Source: a virus
Taxonomy: Duplodnaviria; Heunggongvirae; Uroviricota; Caudoviricetes
DNA: 64,000 bases
IMG/VR virus record: IMGVR_UViG_3300037307_000307
Reading direction: 5' to 3' (one strand)
In this document: one piece after another, positions 4,593-38,257 of the stretch
Position numbering within the stretch: position 1 is the first letter of the stretch
Layout of the letters: every line of letters begins with the position of its first letter
Translations under genes and position numbers: made by a program
The notes under the pieces: model-generated
Told to the model about the DNA's origin: nothing
Seen by the model: the letters and a program-made list of their open reading frames with translations, nothing else
The model's database searches: none

Positions 4593-4952
4593 ATGAGTTA
4601 TAAAAAATACGGAATAAGCTTTGAGAAAAAAATTCATAACGGATGGGAAGAGCATCAACGTTTATTGAAAAGTAAAGACCCGAAAGCGATTACTTATGTG
4701 AAAATGTTAAAAAGTAATAGTTTCGGTCATCCTCATCCAATGGGATATTTCTATAAATGGCACTATGTTTTTACATCAAAGAAGGGAACTGTGTCTTTAA
4801 TAAAATTATTAGATTACCATCGGACCGGTGAGCATATCTGGGAGATTTTAATAGGAGATTGTAAAGATGGTAATATTGAAAGGTTTTATAAACATGAAGA
4901 TGCTTCTAAAAGAATAATAGAGATATTGAGGAATGATAGAGATGAAAAATAA
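4593..4952 (+). CDS. hypothetical protein
   Basis: 119-aa ORF, tightly coupled to neighbours. Confidence 0.4.
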   Translation: MSYKKYGISFEKKIHNGWEEHQRLLKSKDPKAITYVKMLKSNSFGHPHPMGYFYKWHYVFTSKKGTVSLIKLLDYHRTGEHIWEILIGDCKDGNIERFYKHEDASKRIIEILRNDRDEK

Positions 4953-5622
4953 AAAAGCCGAATTAAACCCGATAGCAATTGTTGTTATTATAGTATTTCT
5001 TGGTTTGATAGTGTTCTTTGCAATAAAATACGCTACATCAGAAGATGAAACTGAATTAAATGTTACTAAAATAAATGGTTCAATTTCTTCAACTGCAACT
5101 AAATATGTAAATCCTTCAACGGGAGCGGTTAATATCACTGGCGGAAAAGATTTGACAGTAAAAAGTATTGATGATATAAATTACACATTAGACCCAACGA
5201 ATAAATCTCAAGTTCTTGTTAGAGTTGTATATCCTAATAGTTCTATGACTCCGGGAGATATAATGTCTTCAAATGTAACTGAGATATGTGTGAGTGGATA
5301 TTCTGATAGTGTAAGAAGTGTCTCGGATTCATTAAGAACGCAAGTTTATGAACAATACAAATTATCTCCAGACCAACCCGAAGGAACATTTGAAGTCGAC
5401 CATTTGATACCTTTATCAATCGGTGGAAGTAACGATATTAAGAATCTATGGCCTCAGCCTAGAGACCCTAGACCTGGATATAAAGAGAAAGATGTTTTAG
5501 AGAATTATTATCATAGACAAGTATGTGCCGGTAAAATGGATTTAAGAGAGGCGCAGGCTATGATGGCACAGAATTGGTTCCAAGGATATGTAAATGCTAG
5601 AGCCGAAGGTGGAATAAAATGA
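4933..5622 (+). CDS. membrane-anchored HNH-family nuclease with sequon-rich extracytoplasmic region
   Basis: N-terminal TM IAIVVIIVFLGLIVFFAI; motif FEVDHLIPLSIGGSNDIKNLWPQP (DH..P..GG.N..NL = HNH core) and VCAGK; many N-x-T/S. Confidence 0.5.
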   Translation: MIEMKNKKAELNPIAIVVIIVFLGLIVFFAIKYATSEDETELNVTKINGSISSTATKYVNPSTGAVNITGGKDLTVKSIDDINYTLDPTNKSQVLVRVVYPNSSMTPGDIMSSNVTEICVSGYSDSVRSVSDSLRTQVYEQYKLSPDQPEGTFEVDHLIPLSIGGSNDIKNLWPQPRDPRPGYKEKDVLENYYHRQVCAGKMDLREAQAMMAQNWFQGYVNARAEGGIK

Positions 5623-6521: not shown

Positions 6522-7007
6522 ATGGGATTCTGGAAATTTACTTTTTTTATGTTATTATTAATTATTTCAATAACACTATATTCTATACAATCAACAATGA
6601 CGCACGAATATTTGCATCAATTAATATTTGCAAAATATGGCATTGAATCTAATGTAACTTATAACTTTGGACCGGCGTTTAAAGAGCAGCTCCAGGACGT
6701 TATACACTTTAGAATTATCGATGATAATATGTCATTACTTGATAAACAACCAATGGCGTGGACGACACCTGCATGGAACACAACTGGTGAATGCACGGAA
6801 ACATGTAGATTATTACATACTCAAGTAGAGATATCAGATAATCAAACAGAAAACATAGTTCAAGTTCTTTTTCTTTTCGCCATATTATGGTTAGCGTATC
6901 AATATTTTTCTGAACAAAATATAAAAAGGGTATATGTATATGAAAAAAAAGATAAAGAAGATGAAGAAGATGAAGAGCCTAGATTTAATATAGAAACAAG
7001 AGATTAA
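6522..7007 (+). CDS. membrane protein with acidic C-terminus
   Basis: Start coupled to upstream stop; FWKFTFFMLLLIISITLY and VQVLFLFAILWLAY helices; DKEDEEDEE tail. Confidence 0.45.
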   Translation: MGFWKFTFFMLLLIISITLYSIQSTMTHEYLHQLIFAKYGIESNVTYNFGPAFKEQLQDVIHFRIIDDNMSLLDKQPMAWTTPAWNTTGECTETCRLLHTQVEISDNQTENIVQVLFLFAILWLAYQYFSEQNIKRVYVYEKKDKEDEEDEEPRFNIETRD

Positions 7008-7714
7008 GGCCTGCCCCAAGTATCTGAATATAAGCTATCATTATCAGATTCTTCTGAATAGAACAATCCACCTTCCGCAATTGCGGCATATGCTGCTGCA
7101 ATCATAAACAATATTCCTAAGCCCAAGAAAATCCATCCTATTCCTGTTGTATACATATCAGATAAGAAGTTTCCTACTCCATAGATAAGAACATATAATC
7201 CTGTAAGTATAAATAAAGTTGAGGCTATAAATCCAATATAATTATTTTTCAATAATATTGCGAGAATTAAAAGTACTATAGAGGCGATAGATAAAATAAT
7301 AAAAAGTGATTGACTACCTCCAGTTCCAATATCTAAATAAAATCTTTGAGAACCACTGGTTCCTGAATATGTGCACACCATATCACATTTGTAAGAACCT
7401 ATAGAATAATTTGCATATGGTAAAGTGTAATTAAAAAAAGAAGCTCCATAAGTCATTGGTTGATTATTTACAATAACCTGATTGTCCGGGTCATAAACCG
7501 TAATTGAACAATTTGTTCCAACTGGACAATTAGCGCCATTATAATAACAAGGATTCATAATATCAATAACCGAACCTTGTTTGTAATCATAAGCAACTCT
7601 TGAGATTGAAATGTCTGCCGCAGAAACAAAACTAGAAGCTCCTAAAAATAATAATAAAGTTATTAGTAAATCAATAGCTAACAAGATAAATATCTTTTTA
7701 ATATTCTTTGTCAT
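7004..7714 (-). CDS. secreted/membrane protein, 2nd gene of the minus-strand operon (start taken at MTKNIKK)
   Basis: Signal peptide IFILLAIDLLITLLLFLGASSFVSA|AD; Cys-rich sequon-rich ectodomain; 4 C-terminal TM helices. Confidence 0.5.
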   Translation of the reverse strand: MTKNIKKIFILLAIDLLITLLLFLGASSFVSAADISISRVAYDYKQGSVIDIMNPCYYNGANCPVGTNCSITVYDPDNQVIVNNQPMTYGASFFNYTLPYANYSIGSYKCDMVCTYSGTSGSQRFYLDIGTGGSQSLFIILSIASIVLLILAILLKNNYIGFIASTLFILTGLYVLIYGVGNFLSDMYTTGIGWIFLGLGILFMIAAAYAAIAEGGLFYSEESDNDSLYSDTWGRP

Positions 7715-7752
7715 GTTATTACCACGCTGCTCTGGTTTATAAATTTGGTTAG

Positions 7753-10700
7753 TCAGCATGATACTAGTTGCACTCCTGCCTTTAGATTAATTTCTGACTG
7801 TAATTTCTGTATTGTACAAGTTACTGAATCAGCAAATTGTGTTAATATATTCGAACTTATTGTTCCATCATACTGCCAAACAGCGTCTCCTAATTCTTGT
7901 ATACTTTCATTTGATAAAGTCAAATTAGCAGTTGGATAATAAGTTAATTCTCTTGTTGAATAACTCCATACATCACTTGCAGTTATATCATTCCCATTAT
8001 CAGTTAATGTTCTAGTTGTTGCATTCCATACTGAAGTTGGTATAGAAGAATAATCATTCTGATAAACATGGAAGTCATTTAAGCTGAAGTATTTTCTATC
8101 TTCAACTATACAATTTGTATAATAAGCATATATTCCAAGTTGTGCCGGAACTGTAAAGTCATAGATATATGCACCATCTCCTATCTCAGTCATTGACTGA
8201 TTAAATATGAATGTAGTTGAATTTGGATATAATAAAGTTACAGTACAATTCGCTCCTGTTTCAACTTCTGCTAATGCACCAGTACCTTTAACCAATCTAA
8301 TTGCTATTTTACCTGCATCTCCATCAAGATATTCAGTACCTCCAACATATGTGTGTCCTATATTTGCAATATCTTCAACTGTACTTACATTTTGAGTAGT
8401 TCCAGTTGTTGCGAAATCAACTGTTTTATTTGAATAACTCCATACAGCATTCGCAACATCGCTATTATTTACGGTAGCTTCAACTGTGAAATTGAAATCA
8501 GTCAGTGTTCTAACCGCATTGGTCCACACTACTTCTTGTATCAAAGTATAATTTGTAAGGTCTGCCCATTCAGGATAATAACTTAATGTTCTATTTGTTG
8601 AGGCCCATACCGCATCAGCAATAGCCGTTGTATTTACATCAATTGTAAAGTTAAATTCAGTAAGAGTTCTTTGTGTTGCATTCCAAACCATATCAGATAT
8701 TAAAGTATAATTCACGACATTATCTAATTGTGTTTGGTTTACATTCACTGTGAAGTCAAAGCTTGTCAATGTTCTGTTTGTAGCTTCCCATACAACTTGT
8801 TGTATCAAAGTGTAGTTGGTTAAGTCATATTGATTTGGATATTCAGTTAATGTTCTATTTACAGAAGTCCATACTGCTTCTGCAATTGCAGTGTTGTTTA
8901 CATTAACATCAAATCCAAATTCAGTCAAACTTCTATTAGTTGCATCCCATACCATTTCTTGTATCAATGTGTAATTGATTGGAGTCGAGTAATTGGAAAC
9001 TATATTTTCTATTTCAGTATAGTTAGTTTGGTCACCGAAGTTCTCGTAGTAAGTCAAGTTTCTATCTGTTGCGTTCCACACCATTTGTTGTATCTTATTA
9101 TAATCAGTCAAATCAGTTGGTGCTGTATGGTTGTAATCAGTAAGACTTCTATTCACAGCAGTCCAAACTGCATCAGCTATTGCTGTGTTATTAACTTCTG
9201 CATTCACGGTGAAGTTAAAGCTTGTTAATGTTCTATCAACCGCAGTCCATACTGCATTAGATATTTCTGTTTCATTTACATCAACTGTAAAGTCAAAGTC
9301 AGTTAATGTTCTATTCAAATTCTCCCATACAACTTGTTGTATCAAAGTATAATTAGTCATATCAATATGTTCATAGTATGTCAAGTTTCTATCTGAATAT
9401 AACCATACTCCGGCGGCAGTATCTTCAGCTATCTTGGTATAATTAGTCAAATCAACTTGTGCAGGATAGAATGTCAAGTTTCTATCTGTTGCATTCCATA
9501 CTCCAACTATTATTCTGTCATAATCAGTTACGTCTTCGGTGTAAGTTAAGTTTCTATTTCCAGCATTCCAGACTACATCAGCAATTTGTGAATAGTTTGT
9601 AAGGTCTATTTGTTGAGGATAGTAAGTCAAGTTTCTGTCTGTTGCATTCCAGACTCCTCCAACTACATTCTCTGTTATTTCAGTGTAGTTAGTTAAATCA
9701 ACTTGTGCAGGATAGTATGTAAGATTTCTTGTAGTTGCATTCCATACTCCAACTATTATTTCAGTATAATTAGTCATATCAATATGTTCATAATATGTAA
9801 GGTTTCTACTTGCAGCATTCCAAACATAATCTGCTATTTGAGTGTAGTTAGTTAAATCAACTTGTGCAGGATAGTATGTAAGATTTCTATCAGTTACGTT
9901 CCATACAGCTTGAGATGTTCCTTCAATTATTAATGTGTAATTAGTCTGGTCTACCTGTGCTGGATAGTAAGTCAAGTTTCTATCAGTGTTATTCCATACT
10001 CCGACTATTATTCTGTCATAATCAGTTACGTCTTGGTAGAATGTAAGATTTCTATCAGTTCTTGTCCAAACATAATCTCCAACCAAAGTATAATTAGTTA
10101 GGTCTATTTGTTGAGGATAGTAAGTCAAGTTTCTTATTGCTGCATTCCACACTGATTCTGCAACTTGTGTATAATTGGTCAAATCAATTTGTTCATAGTA
10201 AGTTAAGTTTCTATCGGGCGCTGTCCATACTGCTGTTGCGATTTGGTCAAGAAGATTTACAGAGATTGTTGCAGTTGAGCCCCAAACTGTTTCGGCCAAG
10301 AATGTATAATTTGTGACATCAGCATAGAATGTAAGACTTCTATTTGACGCGCTCCAAACTGTGTCAGATATTAATGTATAATTTGTAAGGTCTACTTGAG
10401 CAGGATAGAATGTCAAGTTTCTATCTGTTGCGTTCCAGACACCTACAATTATTTGATTATAATCAGTTACATCTTGATAATAAGTTAAGTTTCTGTTGGC
10501 TGCATTCCAGACTACTTCAGCAACTTGCGAGTAATTTGTTAAATCCATTTGTTGAGGATAATATGTTAAATTTCTATCAGTTGCGTTCCACACAGCGTTT
10601 GCTGTTTCGCCAATTATAAGAGAGTAATTTGTTAAATCAACTTGTGCAGGATAGTATGTAAGATTTCTTGTAGTTGCATTCCATACACCAAGAATGATTC

Positions 10701-13086
10701 TATCATAATCTGTTTGGTCTCCAAAGTTTTGATAATATGTTAAATTCCTGTCTGTGTAATTCCAAACAGCAGGAGGAACTTGATTGAAGTACAATTCAAG
10801 TAATGTGTAATTAGTTTGGTCTCCAAAGTTCTGATAATAAGTTAAGTTTCTATTTGCCGAGTTCCATACAGTTTCCGCAATTAAAGTATAGTTTGTAAGG
10901 TCAACTTGTGTTGGATAATATGTTAGATTTCTATCTGGTGCGGACCATATTGCAGCCGCGATTTGATTAAGAAGTCCGACTGATATTGTTGCAGATGAAG
11001 TCCAAACACTTTCTCCGACTAGAGTATAATTTGTAACATCGGCATAATAAGTTAAGTTTCTATCTGAATTATTCCACACAGCAGCGGCAACAGCTGAAGT
11101 ATCAATTGATGCGGTTATATTTGGATAAGCAGTTAAAGTTCTTGTTGGATAATTCCATGTTGCTCCTGGAATATTATTAACGTGAATTTCTCCTCCTCCT
11201 CTTATTTGATTTATCGGAACTTCAACAAAATTAATTTGGTCTAATCTAACTTGATTCAATCTCAGAGTTCCAGCTGTATAATGATTGGGGTCACTATCAT
11301 TATATCTTACAATCATATTTCCTCCGCTAACAAATGAAGATATATTTGTAAGGGCTGAACTTACAGTTCCATCTGAAACTACATTATAAGATAAACTGTT
11401 TGCTAATTTATACCATGAACTACCTGTGTAATTCCATAAATATACATCAACTAATTCTCCAAAATCACTCCAAGTATATCTTGTAACTATGTCCGCTTGA
11501 TGATATTCCGGTACAAGAGTTATTCCTGAAATAGTTGTGTTTACATCTAAATTATATTTAGGAGTACCACATTGTTTGTAAGTATTATAATTTGTTGCTA
11601 ATGTAGATGGAGAAGGACTTGCAAAATTTGCATCAGTTCCCTTAATATAACAAACTTCATCCATTACAGTATTCTCGATGTCATTTCCACCACCCAATAC
11701 TGCTCCAATTGTAAATCCATTTGAAAGAGTTAATGTTCCAGATTGAGTTTTCGCTTCATCTAATAATAAACTTCCATCTATATATAATCGCATTCTTGTA
11801 AAGTTTGCAAAACCGCAAACTGTATGAAATTGAGAATCTATATATGTTCCAGTTGTCTCTATTGTCTGAGCTCCTGTACCACTTCTATCAGAAACAAATC
11901 TAATATGATTTCCTCCATCATATGAAAATCTTATAACATCTCCAGATTCTGCTGAAATTAATCTATTACCATTAGCATTACTTGCAGATTGATTGAAACT
12001 AAAACAAACCATGTAAGCTTCATTTGAAGCTAAATTTAACTTAGTAGCTGCTGCAAAATTTGTATAATCATTAGTTCCAACTCCATATCTAACTCCTGCG
12101 CTTCCAACTTGTCCTGGAACTCCGATTGTTGGACTGTTGAAATGAGTACCTGTTGTTGGAGACGCACTTGAATCGAGAGTTGATGTTCCAGAATATTCAT
12201 CAAGATGGGCCATAAGTAAAGTTGTAACATTTGAATGAGCACCTGTGTTTGAGTTCTTTTCAACTATTGTGAGATAATTAGAATCGATATTTGTCAGACT
12301 TGCACCAGTTCCATTAACATACCAACCGTATGTTAAAGCGTATGCTGAGGCATTCGTGCTTGTTGTTAAAGTGTAATATTCGCAAAAGATTTCAGTCATA
12401 TAAACACCAAGTGAAGAAGGAGCTGTAAAATCATAATAATATAATCCTGTACTTCCAGTTTGATAAGTCATAATAGATTCATCAACCCATTTAACTCCAT
12501 TTGGATAATAAACTGAAATATAACAAGAAGCATTGTTTATCGGAGTTAATTGATTTTCTAAAAGTTGAACGAAAACTTTACCATTATCTCCAATGGTATA
12601 TTCAGTTCCGAAGATATCTATTTTCTTAGCAGCTTTGTTCATATATGTTAAATCAAGCCAAGCTGTTGTTGAACCTATATTACCACCAGAAACTGAAATT
12701 TTAACTTCATATGTTCCTGTTCGAGTTATTCTATTAGAACAATCAAAATAAACGGTTGATTTACCAGCGCCGGAATAAGTTGTTGAAACTGTATATGTTG
12801 GGTTGTTACAAGTTTGATTATTAATTAAAACAGTAAATGTTCTGGTAGGATTAATATAAGCATCTATAACTATTATAGCGGAACTAACTTGACTAATACC
12901 GTCTGGAGGATTAACTGTTAAATTATAAGAATAGTTAAGATTTTGAGTTAAAGATGGTTGATAAAATGGGCTAAGAAATATTTTATTAAATTGTTGGGTT
13001 TGTTGTTCTGCACTAACAAATGACGTGAAACTAATAAATAATATCAGAAACATCACCGATACTATTATTTTCATTTTATTTTTCAT
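7753..13086 (-). CDS. giant (1777 aa) secreted repeat protein with N-terminal LamG/ConA-like domain and about 35 tandem 22-aa NLTYY repeats
   Basis: SD AAGGAGAT 12 nt upstream; signal peptide ...FTSFVSA|EQ; jelly-roll-like segment MVCFSFNQSASNANGNRLISAESGDVIRFSYDGGNHIRF...MRLYIDGSLLLD; repeat VWNATDRNLTYYPAQVDLTNYT. Confidence 0.7.
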   Translation of the reverse strand: MKNKMKIIVSVMFLILFISFTSFVSAEQQTQQFNKIFLSPFYQPSLTQNLNYSYNLTVNPPDGISQVSSAIIVIDAYINPTRTFTVLINNQTCNNPTYTVSTTYSGAGKSTVYFDCSNRITRTGTYEVKISVSGGNIGSTTAWLDLTYMNKAAKKIDIFGTEYTIGDNGKVFVQLLENQLTPINNASCYISVYYPNGVKWVDESIMTYQTGSTGLYYYDFTAPSSLGVYMTEIFCEYYTLTTSTNASAYALTYGWYVNGTGASLTNIDSNYLTIVEKNSNTGAHSNVTTLLMAHLDEYSGTSTLDSSASPTTGTHFNSPTIGVPGQVGSAGVRYGVGTNDYTNFAAATKLNLASNEAYMVCFSFNQSASNANGNRLISAESGDVIRFSYDGGNHIRFVSDRSGTGAQTIETTGTYIDSQFHTVCGFANFTRMRLYIDGSLLLDEAKTQSGTLTLSNGFTIGAVLGGGNDIENTVMDEVCYIKGTDANFASPSPSTLATNYNTYKQCGTPKYNLDVNTTISGITLVPEYHQADIVTRYTWSDFGELVDVYLWNYTGSSWYKLANSLSYNVVSDGTVSSALTNISSFVSGGNMIVRYNDSDPNHYTAGTLRLNQVRLDQINFVEVPINQIRGGGEIHVNNIPGATWNYPTRTLTAYPNITASIDTSAVAAAVWNNSDRNLTYYADVTNYTLVGESVWTSSATISVGLLNQIAAAIWSAPDRNLTYYPTQVDLTNYTLIAETVWNSANRNLTYYQNFGDQTNYTLLELYFNQVPPAVWNYTDRNLTYYQNFGDQTDYDRIILGVWNATTRNLTYYPAQVDLTNYSLIIGETANAVWNATDRNLTYYPQQMDLTNYSQVAEVVWNAANRNLTYYQDVTDYNQIIVGVWNATDRNLTFYPAQVDLTNYTLISDTVWSASNRSLTFYADVTNYTFLAETVWGSTATISVNLLDQIATAVWTAPDRNLTYYEQIDLTNYTQVAESVWNAAIRNLTYYPQQIDLTNYTLVGDYVWTRTDRNLTFYQDVTDYDRIIVGVWNNTDRNLTYYPAQVDQTNYTLIIEGTSQAVWNVTDRNLTYYPAQVDLTNYTQIADYVWNAASRNLTYYEHIDMTNYTEIIVGVWNATTRNLTYYPAQVDLTNYTEITENVVGGVWNATDRNLTYYPQQIDLTNYSQIADVVWNAGNRNLTYTEDVTDYDRIIVGVWNATDRNLTFYPAQVDLTNYTKIAEDTAAGVWLYSDRNLTYYEHIDMTNYTLIQQVVWENLNRTLTDFDFTVDVNETEISNAVWTAVDRTLTSFNFTVNAEVNNTAIADAVWTAVNRSLTDYNHTAPTDLTDYNKIQQMVWNATDRNLTYYENFGDQTNYTEIENIVSNYSTPINYTLIQEMVWDATNRSLTEFGFDVNVNNTAIAEAVWTSVNRTLTEYPNQYDLTNYTLIQQVVWEATNRTLTSFDFTVNVNQTQLDNVVNYTLISDMVWNATQRTLTEFNFTIDVNTTAIADAVWASTNRTLSYYPEWADLTNYTLIQEVVWTNAVRTLTDFNFTVEATVNNSDVANAVWSYSNKTVDFATTGTTQNVSTVEDIANIGHTYVGGTEYLDGDAGKIAIRLVKGTGALAEVETGANCTVTLLYPNSTTFIFNQSMTEIGDGAYIYDFTVPAQLGIYAYYTNCIVEDRKYFSLNDFHVYQNDYSSIPTSVWNATTRTLTDNGNDITASDVWSYSTRELTYYPTANLTLSNESIQELGDAVWQYDGTISSNILTQFADSVTCTIQKLQSEINLKAGVQLVSC
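8500..11100 (-). repeat. intragenic tandem repeats (~66 nt, 22 aa) within CDS 7753..13086
   Basis: Periodic recurrence of ...gttccatac...aagtttctatc... on + strand corresponding to VWN(A/T)xxRNLTYY units. Confidence 0.6.
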
Positions 13087-13421
13087 TATAATTAGAATAT
13101 CTCCTTACTTATAAACATGGTTTTATTGCTCCTCTCGGTAACTCTTTTGGAAAAATGACTATATGTTTTATATGTGAACCATATTTATAAAGTATTCTAT
13201 TAGCCAAAAAGATTAAATACTACCTTATCCTTAATAAAATATGGAAGTTTGCTACAGTTTAAGTAACAGAATTATGACAACCGTAGCTGCGCCACAATAT
13301 CAGCCGGAAAAACTATCTGGCGGATTTAATTGGGTCGCATAAACTCCCATCGTTTAATTTTAAGACAGATTTTCTATCTCGGCTGACCCGAGTGGGAGAA
13401 CACACTCATTTTCGTTAACAT

Positions 13422-13450: not shown

Positions 13451-13610
13451 TTTATTTTGGGCTCATAGTATAATAGTAGTATATCCGCCTTGCACGCGGA
13501 AGGCAAGAGAGCATAACTCTTTGGGTCCATTCGTCCTCAAACTTCTGTTGCGGGAAGAAGTCAGTTGCTGCAATAACTGCTGGTTAGTTCTGTTTTTGAG
13601 GACATTTTAT

Positions 13611-13682
13611 GAGTCTATAGTTTAATGGCAAAAATATCTCTCTTGTAAAGAGATGATTCCAGTTCAATTCTGGGTAGACTCT
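13611..13682 (+). tRNA. tRNA-Tyr (anticodon GTA)
   Basis: Acceptor GAGTCTA/TAGACTC 7 bp, U8, anticodon stem CTCTC/GAGAG with loop TTGTAAA, T-arm CCAG-TTCAATT-CTGG. Confidence 0.6.
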
Positions 13683-13684
13683 TC

Positions 13685-13755
13685 GGGGTGTTAAGATAAT
13701 GGCAGTCTCCGCCGTTTGGAACGGCGTTGCCCTGGTTCGATTCCAGGATATCCCA
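13685..13755 (+). tRNA. tRNA-Pro (anticodon TGG)
   Basis: Acceptor GGGGTGT/ATATCCC with 2 G-U pairs, anticodon stem CGCCG/CGGCG loop TTTGGAA, T-arm CCTGG-TTCGATT-CCAGG. Confidence 0.55.
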
Positions 13756-13757
13756 TC

Positions 13758-13824
13758 GGGTTGAGGACAGGAGAGTAAGGCGCGACTCGGCGCTGTGGGC
13801 TCCGCGAGTCTTGGCTTCAACCCA
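13758..13824 (+). other. tRNA-like 67-nt element (acceptor-like GGGTTGA...TCAACCC) lacking a canonical T-arm; possible tRNA remnant or atypical structured RNA
   Basis: Perfect 7-bp terminal complement, internal GACTCG...CGAGTC hairpin, GC-rich, sits between tRNA-Pro and tRNA-Gln. Confidence 0.2.
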
Positions 13825-13826
13825 AT

Positions 13827-13899
13827 AGCCTTGTAGTCTAGCGGCCAAGGACTGCGGACTTTGACTCCGCGAACCCAGGTTCGAATCCTGGCGAGGCTA
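13827..13899 (+). tRNA. tRNA-Gln (anticodon TTG)
   Basis: Acceptor AGCCTTG/CGAGGCT, anticodon stem GCGGA/TCCGC loop CTTTGAC, T-arm CAGG-TTCGAAT-CCTG. Confidence 0.6.
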
Positions 13900-13911
13900 T
13901 CGGCTCATAAG

Positions 13912-15929: not shown

Positions 15930-18708
15930 GAATTCATATCGCATCACTAAAGAAGAAAGAGATAAGATAAATAGTTTAGAAGATATTAAAAAAGATGATT
16001 ATATTTACGAGATATGTAAAAGAGAAGGAACGACATATACAAAAATTCTAGCACAATTACAAGAACCACAAGAGCTTATTGAAAAAGAGAAAATTGAAGA
16101 AGATAGAAAAGAAGAGTCTGAACATGAAATAGATATTGAAGATTTGCAACCAGTTGATTATGATAAAAGAACTTTGAAGGTAAATATACTCGACATATTT
16201 AAACCAGGAGTAGATGATATGACTTTAACTTCTAGCGGAAATTATAAAATGATATGTCCTGATTGTGGTTTACAAGGCGGAAGAACTGAAGGTTTTATTG
16301 TATATCCTGAATCTAATCAAGCTTCTTGTCACTCATCTGGAAAATGGTTTAAAGTTTTAGAAGCCTATGCTTTGAAAAAGAAATTGATTAGATGTTTAGA
16401 TGGAAGAGAACCAGGTGAAAAAGATAAAAAAGTTTTAGGTGGAGAATTATGGACGCAAACATTACTTGAATTCAAGGATGAATATGGTGTAGATAGATTT
16501 AATGATTTATGTGAAGATTGGGGAATTAAAAAAAGATTACAAATACCTGGTAAGTTCAGACTTCAATCAGCATTTGCCGATGATGCTGCAAAAATATTCT
16601 GTAGTAGAAATTTATTATTTTTAAGAGCTGAATCCGGAAATATAATAAAAATAAAAGTTACTAAAAAAGTTGATAAAGATAATGATGAAAAAATGCTTAC
16701 AATAGAGAGAGGAATTGAGGAATTAACTCCTGAAGAATTTGTGACTCTTTTAGAATTATATGTAGACCCTTATATGAAAACATATTACAAAGACGGAACA
16801 TTTCAAGAGGCTCCATATTCTATAAATAAGGAAACTGCTGGAATAACATTAGCTAGTCCTAATTTTAGATTTAAAATGCCTCCATTGGAAAGAATATTTG
16901 ATATTCAAATTCCGATTGTTCATAAAGGTAAATTAACATTTCCTAAGAAAGGATATGATAGAAGATTTGCAAGTTATCTTCCACCAAATGCTCCTAAAAT
17001 AAGGCCGAATGTATATACAGTTCAAGATGCAAAAGACTTCATTGAAGGAATATTTCAAGAATTTTGTTTTAAGGATAGAAAAGATTTCATGCACGCTCTT
17101 GCTGCATTCATAACTCCGTTCTGCAGAGGTTTATTCTCAAAGTTCTCTGTGAGAACTCCGGTATTTATCTATATGGCAAATAGAGAAAGAGCCGGTAAAG
17201 ATTATTTGGCCGGATGTACTGGTATGTTATATGAAGGAGTCGCGACAGAACAACCGCCAATATCAACAGATGAAAAGGGTGGATTTGGTAATAGTAACGA
17301 AGAATTGAGAAAGAAAATAACATCTTGTATGATTGAAGGGAAGAAAAGATTTCACTCTAGTAATAATAAAGGATTGTTAAATAATAGCGTACTAGAAAGC
17401 GCAACCACTTTGGATACATGGGAAGATAGAGTTCTTGGAAGAAATAAAACAATAAATTATCCAAATGAAATGGAATATAGTTTGTCTGGAAATATAGGTA
17501 TGAGTTTGACACCAGACCTTGTTAATAGAGCGAGAGTTATAGATTTAGAGTTGACCATAGAAGATGCTAATTCAAGAGTTTTTAAGAATCCAAGATTGCA
17601 CGCATGGATTCTTGATAATAGAGAAAGTATAATTTCTGCATTATATGCAATAGTCAAACACTGGTGGGAAAATGGGGCTAAACCTGGAAAGGTTCCTTTC
17701 ACTAGTTTTCCTGAATGGTCTGAAGTTGTTGGAGGAATAATGGAATCAGTTGGATGGGACAATCCTTGCACCAAAGATGAAGTTACAGTTATTGCGCTTG
17801 ACCAGGAAACTGATGAAATGAAAATATTGTTTGAAACAGCATATGAACAGAAACCAAATACATGGTTGAATCTTGGAGAATTGCAAGAGATAGTTGAAAA
17901 AGATGATATAATGCCGGATTTGGATTTAAAGAATAAGTCAGACCAGATAAAGTTTGGCAAATTAATTGCAAAATATGGTAATAGAATTCTATCTGATATT
18001 ACTATGTATGTTAAAGATAATAAACAAAGTCAAAGAAGAAAATACAAATTTAATAAGTCTCTACTGGCCCAAGAAGCTGATAAAGAAACTATAATTGATA
18101 AAGATAATAAAGAAAGTATAATTGATAAAAAGAATGAAGAAGTTAAAGAAAATTTGACAGAAAGTGAAAAAACTGACCAAAAAGTGCGCATGTTGCCCAT
18201 GTTTGCGCATGTTTCTACTCCGTCACATGATAGAAAATTGGAATTCATACCATACAGCGATACAAAAACATGCGCAGATATGCGCAACATGCGCACCCCC
18301 CTCACCCAGCCTGAAACATCAATTAAAACAACTATACTGAGCAAAGATGTTGTCCGGGAAGACTTGGAAAACATCCCCAAACATCCCCACCCCTCCACTT
18401 CCACTGGAAAGCCATTGGATTACTATACAAAGAAGATGGCTGTGGCCAAACAAGAAGAAATTGATAAAAGACTCAAAAAGGTCAGAAGCGAAAGAGAGCT
18501 CCAATTCTGGGAAGACCCACAGTGCGCAAGTATTGTAGCGCAATGTACAAGAGAGCAAACGCTTGAGTATGTTAAAGCCAATCCAAAGTCTTCCTATGAA
18601 AAGATTAGACTTGCACTTGGACTTGGAAGTTCAAAATGGCTGGTAGAACTTGCAAACGAAGGTTTAATAAAAAGAAACGATGATGAAAGTTGGGAGATAG
18701 TTATATAA
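15916..18708 (+). CDS. large replication protein, putative primase/helicase-like (zinc-binding N-region, degenerate P-loop-like region, C-terminal wH-like domain)
   Basis: ATG at 15916 (METIKNSY...) after ggtgaagagg; CPDCG...CHSSG zinc motif; VFIYMANRERAGKDYLAGCTG P-loop-like; stop overlaps PolB start (TAATG). Confidence 0.45.
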   Translation: METIKNSYRITKEERDKINSLEDIKKDDYIYEICKREGTTYTKILAQLQEPQELIEKEKIEEDRKEESEHEIDIEDLQPVDYDKRTLKVNILDIFKPGVDDMTLTSSGNYKMICPDCGLQGGRTEGFIVYPESNQASCHSSGKWFKVLEAYALKKKLIRCLDGREPGEKDKKVLGGELWTQTLLEFKDEYGVDRFNDLCEDWGIKKRLQIPGKFRLQSAFADDAAKIFCSRNLLFLRAESGNIIKIKVTKKVDKDNDEKMLTIERGIEELTPEEFVTLLELYVDPYMKTYYKDGTFQEAPYSINKETAGITLASPNFRFKMPPLERIFDIQIPIVHKGKLTFPKKGYDRRFASYLPPNAPKIRPNVYTVQDAKDFIEGIFQEFCFKDRKDFMHALAAFITPFCRGLFSKFSVRTPVFIYMANRERAGKDYLAGCTGMLYEGVATEQPPISTDEKGGFGNSNEELRKKITSCMIEGKKRFHSSNNKGLLNNSVLESATTLDTWEDRVLGRNKTINYPNEMEYSLSGNIGMSLTPDLVNRARVIDLELTIEDANSRVFKNPRLHAWILDNRESIISALYAIVKHWWENGAKPGKVPFTSFPEWSEVVGGIMESVGWDNPCTKDEVTVIALDQETDEMKILFETAYEQKPNTWLNLGELQEIVEKDDIMPDLDLKNKSDQIKFGKLIAKYGNRILSDITMYVKDNKQSQRRKYKFNKSLLAQEADKETIIDKDNKESIIDKKNEEVKENLTESEKTDQKVRMLPMFAHVSTPSHDRKLEFIPYSDTKTCADMRNMRTPLTQPETSIKTTILSKDVVREDLENIPKHPHPSTSTGKPLDYYTKKMAVAKQEEIDKRLKKVRSERELQFWEDPQCASIVAQCTREQTLEYVKANPKSSYEKIRLALGLGSSKWLVELANEGLIKRNDDESWEIVI
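18180..18300. promoter_or_regulatory. clustered GC-rich iteron-like repeats: 2x GCGCATGTT, then ~60 bp later inverted 2-3x (A)ACATGCGC(A)
   Basis: gtgcgcatgttgcccatgtttgcgcatgttt ... aacatgcgcagatatgcgcaacatgcgcac read directly inside the 3' part of the replication gene. Confidence 0.45.
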
Positions 18709-20549
18709 TGGCAAACTTTAATAAAAAATCCATATTAATTTATGATATCGAGACGGATTCTTTAGATATTCAAACCGCAAATATGAAATGGTTTGGAGCT
18801 TACAGTTATTTGAAAGATAAATATTATTGGTATCAATTTCCACAAGATAAGAAAGAAATTATAAGTTTGATAGAGAGTCATAAGGTTCTTGTAGGATTTA
18901 ACATAAAAGATTTCGATAATGAAATAATCGAAGCAAACCTTAAACTAGAGGAAAACATATTTGAGTATAAAGTTTTAGTCGACTTGTTAGAAATATCCGC
19001 TCCAAAGGCAGGTAAGAATTATGGAGCCCATAGAAAGAATAGATTGACTATGATGGGTTATAAGTTAAAAAATTATACTCTTAAAAATATAATAGAGCTT
19101 TTGAAATTGGATAAGGATATAGGAAGTAAAGGAGATATAGATTATAATATATTCAAGAAAGAAACGTTGACAAAAGAAGAAATAGATGAAATAATAAAAT
19201 ATCTCAAACAAGATATTGATTTAACAAAATTACTTTTTGAATGGTATGAAGAACAATATGAGCCATTAAAGAAACTTCTTCCTACAAAAGAACAAAACAA
19301 TTTCCTATATCTAAAATCAAGTTTAGCAGTTCTTGCTTATAATATAATATGTAATAAAGCAGGACTTCCTGTCGTATATACTGATAAAACAAAGAGTAAC
19401 GAATCTTATTCAGGAGGACATCATATTGAACCCGCCCATGAATTGGTTAAAGGTAATATAATAGAAGTAGATTTTACTAGTGCATATCCTCACGCAATTA
19501 TGATGGGTAATTTGTGTTCACCTGCAAAGGAAAATGAAAAATATTGGGATGGAAATAATTATTACAAACTTGATGGCAAATATAATAAAGACACACAAGG
19601 AAAAATTGAAACAGCTCTAAAGGAAATATTTCTTGAAAGATTGAAAGCTAAGAAAGAGAAAGACATTCCAAAAGATAAATCATATAAAATAGTTATCAAC
19701 AGTTTCTATGGTGCACTTGGTAATCCAGTATTCAAATCAATATATAATAGAAACAGTGCGTCTGACACAACTTCAATTGTTAGAACTTGGATGAAGAAAC
19801 TTGCTAAGAGTTTGGCTGAAGCAGGTTATGAATGTTTATACGGATTTACAGATTCTATCTTCATAAAAATACCAGATAAATTAAATAAAAAAGATGCTAT
19901 GAAAGAGATTGACTTATTCTTAAAAGAAGCTTTGGATAATATGCCTTTTCCAATGGATACTTTCAAAATGGGAATTGAAGAAGAAATTAAAATGATTTGG
20001 TTTGTAGCAAAGAACTGTTATTTGTTCGTAACTCAAGATGATAAGGTAAAATACAAATCTACTCTTTTGAATACAAATACTCCAGCGGCAGTTATGAAAT
20101 TGTTTGAAGAATATATGAAGCCTATAATTATACAGAAACTTGACATTCCTTTTACATATAAAGAACTTGAGCAACAATTAAAATTAGTTATTGAAAAAGA
20201 TATTTCTTTGGCAGCACAGGAACATAAAGTAACAGAACTGAGTGAATATAAATCTCACACATCTTTACAATATCAAATATCTGAAAAACATGGTGAAGGA
20301 AGACACTTATTAATACCTAACAGAAAAGGAGTTGGAGTCGGTCTTAGTAAACATACTAAAAAGAAAGCAGGAGTAAGACATTGCACTATAAAAGAATTCA
20401 AGGACAATAATCTAACAATATCAGATATTGATTTAACTCATCTTCTATCTCACCTCAAACCTTTCTATGAACGTAATGATGAAGCAAAGAAACAACAGAA
20501 AATACAAAGACAAACGTTGTTGCGAGAAATGCAAACAATATATGGATGA
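18708..20549 (+). CDS. polB: family-B DNA polymerase with 3'-5' exonuclease domain
   Basis: ExoI LIYDIETDS, ExoII FNIKDFDNEII, ExoIII YLKQDID; pol motif A DFTSAYPHAIM, motif B KIVINSFYGALGN, motif C YGFTDSIFI. Confidence 0.8.
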   Translation: MANFNKKSILIYDIETDSLDIQTANMKWFGAYSYLKDKYYWYQFPQDKKEIISLIESHKVLVGFNIKDFDNEIIEANLKLEENIFEYKVLVDLLEISAPKAGKNYGAHRKNRLTMMGYKLKNYTLKNIIELLKLDKDIGSKGDIDYNIFKKETLTKEEIDEIIKYLKQDIDLTKLLFEWYEEQYEPLKKLLPTKEQNNFLYLKSSLAVLAYNIICNKAGLPVVYTDKTKSNESYSGGHHIEPAHELVKGNIIEVDFTSAYPHAIMMGNLCSPAKENEKYWDGNNYYKLDGKYNKDTQGKIETALKEIFLERLKAKKEKDIPKDKSYKIVINSFYGALGNPVFKSIYNRNSASDTTSIVRTWMKKLAKSLAEAGYECLYGFTDSIFIKIPDKLNKKDAMKEIDLFLKEALDNMPFPMDTFKMGIEEEIKMIWFVAKNCYLFVTQDDKVKYKSTLLNTNTPAAVMKLFEEYMKPIIIQKLDIPFTYKELEQQLKLVIEKDISLAAQEHKVTELSEYKSHTSLQYQISEKHGEGRHLLIPNRKGVGVGLSKHTKKKAGVRHCTIKEFKDNNLTISDIDLTHLLSHLKPFYERNDEAKKQQKIQRQTLLREMQTIYG

Positions 20550-31423: not shown

Positions 31424-31626
31424 TGATTACGGTCGTGTACATAGACGGTACAAGTGACGAATTTAAGTCAAGTAGTTACCTTTTCACAGACTTTGAAGAA
31501 TCAGATGATTGGATTTCTATAAAAGAAAATACTCGAGATTCTGATGATGATGAGTATGACAGTGATGAGGATAAAACTATCGCTGAGATTCGAAGAGACC
31601 AAATCAGAAAAATACAATATGATTGA
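31423..31626 (+). CDS. small highly acidic protein
   Basis: MITVVYIDGTSDEFKSSSYLFTDFEESDDWISIKENTRDSDDDEYDSDED; stop overlaps SPFH start (ATGATTGA). Confidence 0.4.
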   Translation: MITVVYIDGTSDEFKSSSYLFTDFEESDDWISIKENTRDSDDDEYDSDEDKTIAEIRRDQIRKIQYD

Positions 31627-32482
31627 ATTAGTATTATTAGTAATTTTAGGATTTGTAGTTCTATTTCTATTATCTGGAATAAGAATTATAAGACCTACTC
31701 AAAGAGGCCTAGTGGAAACACTTGGTAGATATACTAGCTTTAGAACTCCTGGTTTTAACTTTATAATACCTATATTTCAAAGTATGACTAAAGTTAATAT
31801 TACAGAACAGATGACTGACATTGAGCCTCAAGAAATAATTACAAAGGACAACCTTAACGCAAAAGTTGACCTTGTCGTATATTTCAAGATAAAAGCAGAT
31901 GAACAGAATGTATGTAATTCAGAATATAAAGTACAAAACGTATATTCTCAGATTGATACTCTAGCTAGAACAACTGCAAGAAATGTCATTGGAACTATGG
32001 CATTCAGAGATGTGAATAGTAAGAGAAACGAATTGAATGACAAACTCAAGACGATTCTTATTAAAGAAACTAGAGATTGGGGAGTTGAAGTTCTTAAAGT
32101 GGAAATGAAAGAAATTGTTCCACCAAAGGATGTTCAAGATACAATGAACAAGGTTATTAAAGCTGAAAATGAAAAAGATGCAGCAATCGACTTCGCAACT
32201 GCAAGGGAAACTGAAGCAGACGGTAAGAAGAGAGCAGCAATCAAAGAAGCAGAAGGACTTGCTCAAGGTAAAATTATAGTTGCTAAAGCAGAAGCTGAAA
32301 GAATAAAGTTGGTCAACGAATCAGCTAATAAATATTTCAAAGGTAATGCACAATTACTTAGAAAATATGATGTAACTGAAAACTCTTTGAAGGATAATGC
32401 AAAAATTATTCTAACAGAGAAAGGTGTCAATCCTCAACTAATAGTTGGAGAATTACCGCTTAAGAGGTCAACAGAAGCCTAA
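31619..32482 (+). CDS. SPFH/band-7 (stomatin/prohibitin-like) membrane protein
   Basis: N-terminal TM IELVLLVILGFVVLFLLSGI; RIIRPTQRGLVETLGRYTSFRTPGFNFIIP...DVQDTMNKVIKAENEKDAAIDFATARETEADGKKRAAIKEAEG matches SPFH core plus the Ala/Glu coiled-coil tail. Confidence 0.65.
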   Translation: MIELVLLVILGFVVLFLLSGIRIIRPTQRGLVETLGRYTSFRTPGFNFIIPIFQSMTKVNITEQMTDIEPQEIITKDNLNAKVDLVVYFKIKADEQNVCNSEYKVQNVYSQIDTLARTTARNVIGTMAFRDVNSKRNELNDKLKTILIKETRDWGVEVLKVEMKEIVPPKDVQDTMNKVIKAENEKDAAIDFATARETEADGKKRAAIKEAEGLAQGKIIVAKAEAERIKLVNESANKYFKGNAQLLRKYDVTENSLKDNAKIILTEKGVNPQLIVGELPLKRSTEA

Positions 32483-37265: not shown

Positions 37266-37741
37266 ACCACCAAACGTCCCTTCCTGGGAAAAAAGAGGTG
37301 ATACTATATTATAGTAATACTATTATTTATATCTTTCGTTTAAAGGAAATATATTCAAAATAATGTCATATTTATTTGTCGTCGACAAATTATTCTAATA
37401 AGGTCATAGTAAATCATTACTCGACGTTAAATCGTTGATTATAGGGCATTTGTGAGGGCCGAAAAATCTAAATAGCCTTATTTCTTAGCAAAAACACTCA
37501 TATTTTATAAAAAGTGTGCTTACCCCTATGACCACTTTGCGGACCCGAGCTTGATTCGTTAATGAATCTTTTTCATCGGCGTACTGTGATTGTAAGCACA
37601 CTTTTTAAACATCATTTATCCTTATAAAGATGGTTAGCATTTTTTCCTGACTGGCACAAAATAATAATATTTATTAACCTAGACTTTGTTCATAACTAAT
37701 GCGTCGCCGACGCACACACATAAATATTGAGATATAAAGAG
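37266..37741. promoter_or_regulatory. 460-bp non-coding palindrome-rich region (candidate replication origin / control region)
   Basis: TTTGTCG-T-CGACAAA (37375-37389); 15-bp IR AAAAAGTGTGCTTAC (37509-37523) / GTAAGCACACTTTTT (37593-37607); GCGTCGcCGACGC (37701-37713); TCATATTTATTTG box at 37366. Confidence 0.4.
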
Positions 37742-38257
37742 ATGACTAATTTAATATTCGACACAGAGACTACAGGACTTATGGATAATCTTATTGAAAG
37801 AATAATATGTATCTGTGTTCATAATACTGAAACGAAAGAAAACAAATGTTTTATAGGTGAAGATGAATCTCAAGTGTTAAAAGATTTCTTTGACTATATA
37901 TCAAAAATACAATCTCCAAATTTAATAGGATATAATATCGACTCCTTTGACCTCCCTTTCGTGGTTAGGAGAGCCGTTGTCCACAAGAAAAGAATTCCGT
38001 GGTTTACTTCCACTGACCTTAGAAAAGTGGCCAATGGTTTCAAATATTCATGGAATAGACAAGAAAAAGGAAGATTGAGAGATTGGGCAAATATACTTGG
38101 AATGCAAGTAGATACTTCTCCCGGTTCTGAAATGTTCAAATTATATTCTGAGAAAAAGTTTGCTGAAATAGAAAGGCATTGTATAGAAGATATCGAGATA
38201 ACTAAAAAATTATACGAGCATGTAGAAGCAACCGGATTATTGAACGGTGGCAGATAG
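37742..38257 (+). CDS. DnaQ-like DEDDh 3'-5' exonuclease
   Basis: ExoI LIFDTETTGL, ExoII IGYNIDSFDLPFV, ExoIII HCIEDIEITKKLY; track start 37727 is TTG, ATG at 37742 preferred. Confidence 0.65.
   Translation: MTNLIFDTETTGLMDNLIERIICICVHNTETKENKCFIGEDESQVLKDFFDYISKIQSPNLIGYNIDSFDLPFVVRRAVVHKKRIPWFTSTDLRKVANGFKYSWNRQEKGRLRDWANILGMQVDTSPGSEMFKLYSEKKFAEIERHCIEDIEITKKLYEHVEATGLLNGGR

Follow-up and report, generated by a model that had tools for sequence, protein, structure and literature searches.

The locus described here raises the question of what is accomplished by a very large, predicted secreted protein whose gene is followed at once by that of a small membrane protein. The DNA is a stretch of 64,000 nucleotides (the window) from IMG/VR virus record IMGVR_UViG_3300037307_000307, filed under Caudoviricetes. 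The larger gene, termed the fibre gene here, is an intact open reading frame (ORF) of 1777 aa at positions 7753–13086 on the minus strand; the smaller is termed the partner gene. The features of both are listed in Table 1. We consider it somewhat probable that the larger protein is a glycosylated adhesin or receptor-binding fibre, that it is held at a membrane by a dedicated anchor subunit with three helices, and that the pair belongs to an archaeal-type mobile element.

The evidence that carries this explanation is a link between the C-terminus of the fibre and the partner. The fibre ends in an immunoglobulin (Ig)-like domain, which is conserved in loci L010, L011 and L014, and in a tail that has no transmembrane (TM) segment. 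The conserved segment of this tail reads ...ILTQF..V.CT.Q..Q..LNLK.GVQL..C, and the tail is conserved only in relatives where a partner gene is next downstream. In L009, L010, L011/L012 and L014, a partner gene likewise follows directly on a large fibre gene that has this C-terminal Ig-plus-tail module, and thus the two-gene unit with a membrane partner that was proposed in the initial annotation is maintained in four other distinct loci. The partner is 66–75% identical to the partners in L010, L011/L012 and L014. The remainder of the fibre varies: the protein in L014 has the same head without the LamG domain and has 22 repeats, that in L011 has repeats of a VTTQVVNV type, and that in L010 has different middle modules.

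Homologues of the fibre that do not have the tail module terminate differently. Three of them (P0004, P0006 and P0008) have a TM helix of their own and a basic tail at the end, and four others (P0001-3 and P0007) end in …RYTHG(V/E)IL(N/D). A partner gene is not adjacent to P0001 (L002-L004) or P0003 (L001), the two homologues with surroundings examined. A scan of metagenomes shows that most partner-like genes with enough upstream sequence directly follow an ORF of at least 360 aa on the same strand; in L015 one small gene is situated between the large upstream ORF and the partner-like gene. There is also a natural fusion, P0092, a protein of 901 aa whose last 170 residues represent a partner-like module. 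Since the tail module co-varies with the partner and the fusion P0092 exists, the partner is most likely the membrane anchor of the fibre, and the N-terminal head would therefore be the distal, ligand-binding end. The pairing of tail module and partner, the head family, the VWxxxxRxLT repeat with its compensated glycosylation sites and the partner family all appear to be undescribed.

The partner gene is itself intact. A hydropathy scan of the protein shows a putative signal peptide (…FVSA↓A), followed by an Ig-like ectodomain of approximately 100 residues with five Cys (nt 7310–7618), three TM helices (nt 7079–7303) and an acidic C-terminal tail. It was originally described as a secreted Cys-rich protein with four C-terminal TM helices; the signal peptide and the Cys residues, four of which are conserved in the family, are borne out, but the number of helices is three. 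In an exhaustive comparison with 1.84 billion cluster representatives, the partner belongs to a family of 912 clusters at E ≤ 1e-3 and 236 clusters at E ≤ 1e-10. Members are nearly all 200–260 aa in length and are matched over their full length. They have in common the four Cys and the TM motifs NEYxGF, G.Y..IYG, YT and GLG; in the TM region of the partner, G179 is invariant and the YTR and GLG motifs are strongly conserved. No consistent Pfam family was found among 59 members, two of which match MG2. The partner ectodomain is related to the Ig-like domains of the fibre: a profile made from the second head domain (d2) and the C-terminal Ig-like domain (profile A6) aligns to it with an hhalign probability of 97.1% and an E value of 5.5e-11. 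An identical partner protein is on record on a contig of 109.7 kb.

The two genes have the properties of an operon, i.e., they are on the same strand, there is no terminator-like site between them, and their adjacency is kept in relatives. The 38-nt gap between them given in the initial annotation is correct if the partner starts at the ATG at 7714, but there is an in-frame ATG further upstream, at 7759, which overlaps the stop codon of the fibre, gives the two genes an overlap of 7 nt and is kept in relatives. The wider partner family aligns from the second Met. The upstream ATG and the open extension that it begins (MLTNQIYK…) are retained in all 12 of the 12 close relatives, in two configurations; in L014 the stop codon comes first and the ATG follows without overlap. 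On these sequence comparisons we lean towards the upstream ATG as the start.

The junction contains a 16-nt stretch, AACCAAATTTATAAAC, that is invariant at the DNA level across four diverged loci (the window, L010, L011 and L014) and encodes NQIYK of the possible N-terminal extension of the partner. It resembles an archaeal B recognition element (BRE)/TATA element and is approximately 21 nt ahead of the second ATG. The stretch was considered as a BRE/TATA promoter for a leaderless partner mRNA, and this was dropped because of the in-frame upstream ATG and open frame in the 12 close relatives; judged by its sequence, it could still be a promoter-like element. A disulfide bond between the terminal Cys of the fibre and C125 of the partner was also considered and was dropped, as the wider partner family does not conserve C125, the Cys residues of the fibre are even in number, and the terminal Cys codon overlaps the partner ATG.

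Table 1. Positions of the fibre and partner features in the window
Feature	Position (nt)	Strand	Basis or remark
Fibre ribosome-binding region	13087..13110	-	AAGGAG, 14 nt ahead of ATG, read in sequence
Fibre putative signal peptide, aa 1-26	13009..13086	-	MKNKMK / hydrophobic core / VSA↓E
Head domain d1, aa 27-152, conserved N-terminal beta jelly-roll	12631..13008	-	Cys pair C93/C116
Head domain d2, aa 155-240, Ig-like beta-sandwich	12367..12624	-	Conserved columns (GTEY...C188...C235)
Beta-sandwich, aa 245-640, ends GGGEIHV, LamG inserted	11167..12354	-	Comparison with relatives
LamG / ConA-like domain, aa 338-478	11653..12075	-	Pfam PF13385 Laminin_G_3
Repeat stalk, aa 643-1560, 32 VWxxxxRxLT-core units of 24-43 aa, 73 N-X-S/T sequons	8407..11160	-	Motif and repeat analysis
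C-terminal Ig-like domain, aa 1580-1665	8092..8349	-	d2 paralogue by BLAST (GGTEY...C1614...C1659)
C-terminal tail, aa 1666-1777	7756..8091	-	Two degenerate repeats and conserved segment, last residue Cys
Fibre/partner junction	7715..7759	-	ATG 7759 overlaps fibre stop (tcATGcTGA); second ATG at 7714
Partner gene, 251 aa (ATG 7759) or 236 aa (ATG 7714)	7004..7759	-	ORF intact; putative signal peptide, ectodomain, TM, tail

The fibre gene is not a pseudogene. The window has approximately 32% G+C, and at this base composition approximately 7% of triplets are expected to be stops; an open frame of 1777 codons is therefore not a product of chance. A separate SRA assembly contains the first 9490 nt of the window again, with 0 mismatches. 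This stretch spans aa 1200–1777 of the fibre and the entire partner gene, and the independent assembly shows that the fibre gene is neither a pseudogene nor an assembly artefact, in agreement with its original reading as a genuine gene. The contig of that assembly terminates within the repeats. The Shine-Dalgarno (SD) motif noted earlier ahead of the fibre gene is also present (Table 1), at a spacing that is usual for the window: in the upstream regions of 85 ORFs from the whole window, GGAG-type motifs are most frequent 11–20 nt 5' of ORF starts. Motif starts at -11 to -20 are unusually distant from the start codons. The motif of the fibre gene and that of a gene for a 6546-aa protein in the same window both start approximately 20 nt upstream.

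The N-terminus of the fibre has the n-h-c layout of a Sec signal peptide, as first proposed, with a small residue at the cleavage site; the Ala at position -1 is invariant in nine homologues. This is the sole hydrophobic segment of the protein in a hydropathy scan. It is followed by the head, which has a conserved Cys pair in d1 and a second in d2; d2 also has a weak match to Pfam MG2. The third part of the head is a beta-sandwich into which a LamG domain is inserted in the fibre, P0001 and P0002; other relatives have an uninterrupted sandwich, in which the segments flanking the LamG domain are contiguous. The match to PF13385 scores 40.5 bits (cut-off 27.6, E 3.8e-10) and was obtained by scanning aa 240–525 alone, as a Pfam scan of the whole protein missed the domain. 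P0001 has a precomputed PF13385 annotation as well. The ConA/LamG-like jelly-roll of the initial annotation is thus a genuine domain, but it is not N-terminal as had been stated: by sequence, the N-terminal jelly-roll (d1) and LamG are different domains. Apart from LamG, the N-terminal head has no match in Pfam, PHROGs or PDB sequences, and the LamG segment found no relative among PDB sequences. In the AF2 model the LamG region has a predicted local distance difference test (pLDDT) score of approximately 40–68, and its lectin-type fold is thus a prediction from sequence.

The stalk consists of repeats that are more diverged than was first thought. The core is W-x4-[RK]-x-[LV]-[TSD], with consensus VWNATDRNLTYY, and is present in 34 copies, 32 in the stalk and two in the tail. 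The location originally given for the array (8.5–11.1 kb) agrees with the measured one. The description of ~35 near-identical 22-aa repeats does not: core-to-core spacing over the 34 copies is 20–43 aa with a mode of 27, and alignment of the 27-aa units shows a mean identity of 55% for protein and 61% for DNA. Part of the array has a three-unit super-repeat of approximately 82 residues. The repeat segments have no Pfam or PHROG family, the Pfam matches being below threshold and unrelated, and the repeat profile (A5) has no match among PDB sequences.

The repeats were also proposed to be recombinogenic and variable in length. Related elements do differ in the number and kind of repeats: 34 copies in the window, 22 in L014 and the VTTQVVNV type in L011. 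However, DNA repeat families show approximately 60–80% identity to their reference copies, the TRF program detected just one short array in the region, and the longest exact DNA repeat is 56 bp, present as a single pair 939 bp apart. With units 20–40% diverged at the DNA level and one identical 56-bp pair, the array represents old duplications and not active homogenisation. Ongoing recombinational variation in length is possible but weakly founded. Four short-read contigs with the partner gene (L009-L012) all break within the repeats of the upstream fibre gene, which fits either assembly collapse or population heterogeneity.

The fibre is rich in N-glycosylation sequons, as the initial annotation had pointed out. 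There are 93 N-X-S/T sequons where 35.4 are expected from composition (z 10.9), and the excess is limited to the stalk, where 73 are present and 19.9 would be expected (z 14), or approximately one sequon per 13 residues; the head has 13 where 12 are expected. In 28 of the 34 cores a sequon is present at one of two mutually exclusive positions, either R-N-L-T or, where this Asn has been lost (RTLT/RSLT), N-R-T/S one residue upstream. This compensation suggests that the sites themselves are under selection. The enrichment is specific to exported proteins of the window: those with an N-terminal hydrophobic signal have ratios of observed to expected sequons of 1.75–3.9, and the primase, the family-B DNA polymerase (PolB) and other cytoplasmic proteins have ratios near 1 or below. 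The sequence pattern fits N-glycosylation of exported proteins.

The genomic context is that of a mobile element. The window encodes PolB, a separate PolB-type exonuclease, two HNH endonucleases, a primase-helicase that matches PHROG DNA polymerase/primase families, a nucleoside deoxyribosyltransferase-like protein, four tRNAs and approximately 80 small ORFs, mostly without annotation; most ORFs in the neighbourhood have no match in Pfam, PHROGs or NCBIfam. The tRNA-Gln has an A1-U72 first pair, which we take to be of the archaeal type, and its CCA is not encoded. The head family of the fibre comprises approximately 15–20 proteins in 5.8 billion (8 + 7 relatives), all on element-like contigs. 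Head-domain relatives are located on two viral contigs in IMG/VR, integrase-bearing contigs rich in ORFans, one metagenome-assembled genome (MAG) of Aenigmarchaeota and one MAG labelled Helicobacter. We take this to be a mobile element, viral or of another kind; on indirect evidence its host is probably an archaeon and possibly one of DPANN type.

Other genes of the window and of related contigs are as follows. PolB is short (619 aa, 18690–20549, plus strand) and has an RNase_H_2-type exonuclease region; the stand-alone PolB-type 3'-5' exonuclease (176 aa, 37727–38257, plus strand) is 17 kb from it. An SPFH/Band 7 (HflK-like) protein is encoded at 31544–32482 on the plus strand (Pfam E 3.7e-36). 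The tRNA cluster (13459–13901, plus strand) lies immediately 5' of the fibre gene, on the strand opposite to it; ARAGORN identifies Thr(TGT), Pro(TGG) and Gln(TTG), and the fourth tRNA, at 13459–13529, is found by Rfam and has no ARAGORN call. A 161-aa ORF (6522–7007, plus strand) is convergent with the partner gene, and the 3' ends overlap by 4 nt. It combines a TM segment at the N-terminus with an HExxH motif (THEYLHQ), four sequons and an acidic tail, has no family match, and may by its sequence be a small membrane metalloprotease. A 229-aa protein (4933–5622, plus strand) with an N-terminal TM or signal segment, seven sequons against 2.1 expected and a C-terminal HNH region just below Pfam thresholds may similarly be an exported or membrane-tethered HNH nuclease.

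The 6546-aa ORF (43206–62846, minus strand) has a putative signal peptide, a C-terminal TM anchor and 278 sequons against 159 expected. Its domains are seven Laminin_G_3, three DUF2341, Big_13 and a Hint/PT-HINT region at approximately aa 2142–2279, and it shows no BLAST similarity to the fibre. Directly upstream of the closest fibre homologues, and overlapping their starts, is a collagen-like gene of 932–984 aa (L002 6344–9241, L001 7201–9999 and L003 5295–8249) with matches to PHROGs of tails and tail fibres. A conserved trio of genes of approximately 190, 220 and 225 aa beside an integrase is common to L001, L002 and L008; the trio is absent from the window.

Taken together, the two genes would specify the two subunits of a surface fibre, which belongs to a mobile genetic element with a probably archaeal host. 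The larger subunit would be exported by Sec, with the signal peptide cut after VSA26. Its head would consist of a jelly-roll like that of a carbohydrate-binding module (CBM), an Ig-like domain and the beta-sandwich with LamG, and the stalk, approximately 920 residues made of 32 diverged units, would keep this head distant from the membrane. The fibre has no membrane anchor of its own; its C-terminal Ig-like domain and Cys-terminated tail would dock on the co-expressed partner, which presents an Ig-like ectodomain of the fibre's own domain family on three TM helices with an acidic cytoplasmic tail. The head would bind a surface ligand, most likely a glycan, and such binding would serve the attachment of a virion to its host cell or of an element-carrying cell to another cell.

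Several observations weigh against parts of this explanation. Translation led by SD motifs in the window does not discriminate between bacteria and archaea, and one relative bears a bacterial name, i.e., contig L006 (DZAZ01000047.1) from the MAG labelled Helicobacter cetorum. This label is probably a result of mis-binning. The contig is 16.7 kb with 29.8% G+C and has consecutive ORFs of 1832, 1274, 1176 and 639 aa, and a d2-like domain is present in one of these four huge ORFs. The pairing is not universal, as no large upstream ORF was seen in L020, L021 and L025, which are distant partner-like loci. In three of four loci the terminal Cys codon of the fibre contributes the TG of the partner ATG that overlaps it, and conservation of this Cys may result from the gene overlap and not from protein function. 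Structure prediction gives little help: the AF2 model of the head (aa 27–650, with eight sequences) has a pLDDT of 49.7 and only d1 is usable. A model of nine repeat units has a pLDDT of 45.9; its input was 23 windows of paralogous and homologous repeats, and MAFFT slid the overlapping windows so that the register was lost. In this model each unit has one strand (RNLTYY) and one helix (LTNYT..I..VWN), a weak indication of the fold of the stalk.

A tentative alternative is that the pair is a spike or fibre complex for receptor binding in a membrane-containing archaeal virus, with the partner in the envelope, and that the fibre decides host range. The window is virus- or mobile-element-like in its PolB, primase-helicase, HNH genes, four tRNAs and dozens of small ORFans, and two head-domain relatives are on viral contigs. 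The closest homologue, P0001, is found directly after the gene with the collagen-like tail and tail-fibre PHROG matches, on a contig with an integrase, and the combination of a conserved end with shuffled middle modules is that of receptor-binding proteins. However, library scans found no capsid, portal, terminase, packaging gene or other virion hallmark in the 64-kb window. A search of 50,697 records of phages and archaeal viruses yielded no relatives of the fibre, PolB, the partner or a central member of the partner family, and the partner family was not found in IMG/VR by a scan that used patterns from a narrower family alignment. The collagen-type PHROG matches are also driven in part by low complexity. 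The role of host-range determinant proposed in the initial annotation depends on the element being a virus and is not supported by the genes found. A more specific and speculative form of this alternative, which we regard as unlikely, is that the pair serves host recognition as the spike of membrane-containing archaeal viruses from an undescribed lineage, possibly with DPANN-type hosts, and that the partner family, with its approximately 900 clusters, is a widespread and as yet unrecognised spike base. Such a base would let the elements mount different large glycosylated fibres on a single shared membrane anchor.

Somewhat less likely than a virion spike is an accessory adhesin on the host cell, e.g., an ultrasmall DPANN-type archaeon, that serves attachment to cells or surfaces. 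The 6546-aa protein is a typical giant surface protein encoded in the same window, the three fibre homologues that end in a TM helix have classical type-I anchors, and one relative is in the Aenigmarchaeota MAG. A groundwater virome study reports LamG/concanavalin proteins on CPR (Candidate Phyla Radiation)/DPANN viruses and suggests that they aid cell adhesion (PMC11310336). The same features would also fit an enveloped virion, however, and the head family is rare. A virion spike and a cell-surface adhesin are not mutually exclusive over evolutionary time.

It is improbable that the partner is independent of the fibre, i.e., a membrane protein for exclusion, lysis or transport whose adjacency reflects mere genomic linkage. 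With 912 clusters, the partner family greatly exceeds the head family of approximately 15–20 proteins, its TM motifs (G179, YTR and GLG) seem to be conserved beyond the needs of a passive anchor, and some distant members have no large upstream gene. But the partner always occurs with one specific C-terminal module of the fibre while the remaining fibre varies, its start codon overlaps the fibre stop codon, both proteins have Ig-like domains of one family, and P0092 is a natural fusion protein with a partner-like module. A role for the fibre as a surface-layer (S-layer) or envelope structural protein of the host, which the initial annotation had also put forward, is hardly credible: the protein is large, predicted to be exported and rich in sequons, but Pfam scans show no S-layer family, the gene is among mobile-element genes, the architecture varies strongly between close relatives, and homologues are very rare whereas every genome of a lineage would be expected to have one.

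The significance of the proposed membrane-anchored two-subunit fibre is in a rule that can be tested, namely that a particular C-terminal module is paired with a particular small membrane protein of three helices, which belongs to a large unannotated family. If docking is real, this would be a reusable anchor system for surface fibres and would help to annotate hundreds of membrane proteins, so far without annotation, in metagenomes from sediment and groundwater. The new type of repeat with compensated glycosylation sites would be useful for the study of archaeal-type N-glycosylation of stalk proteins. The locus overturns no current view.

The stalk may be compared with the short solenoid repeats of bacterial surface proteins and toxins, such as choline-binding (CW_binding_1) repeats, the combined repetitive oligopeptides (CROPs) of clostridia and leucine-rich repeats (LRR). 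They are alike in having variable units of 20–31 residues with conserved Trp/Tyr in long arrays on exported binding proteins. The core motif of the stalk differs, and it has no Pfam match to CW_binding_1/choline-binding repeats or LRR. In comparison with tail fibres of phages and archaeal viruses, the fibre differs by its predicted Sec signal peptide, dense sequons and probable membrane anchoring, and its conserved end is the N-terminus, which would be distal to the membrane. The whole fibre has no match to tail-fibre PHROGs at E ≤ 0.01, and its segments match only PHROGs of unknown function at 21 bits or less. VP4 and VP3 of pleolipoviruses are a pair of spike and small membrane protein in membrane-containing archaeal viruses. 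The likeness is that an exported spike and a small multi-TM protein are encoded adjacently. This is an analogy only, as the sizes differ, the fibre has no TM anchor of its own, and no sequence similarity to any deposited virus was found.

Giant exported adhesin-like proteins are common on the genomes of archaea and ultrasmall cells and on their mobile elements, and the nanohaloarchaeal SPEARE protein is an example of the giant LamG-containing surface proteins of DPANN archaea. The fibre resembles such proteins of DPANN archaea and the LamG/concanavalin proteins of CPR/DPANN viruses in being very large, predicted to be exported, LamG/ConA-like, presumed to function in adhesion and present in the low-G+C context of an ultrasmall archaeon or virus. 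The general kind of protein, an exported adhesin-like giant with LamG that is encoded on a mobile element of archaeal type, is thus already known. LamG is the only part in common, as the fibre head, repeat and tail have no Pfam, PHROG or PDB sequence match. The difference of most interest is in the mode of attachment, in that the fibre would be anchored through a separate subunit and not through a TM helix of its own.

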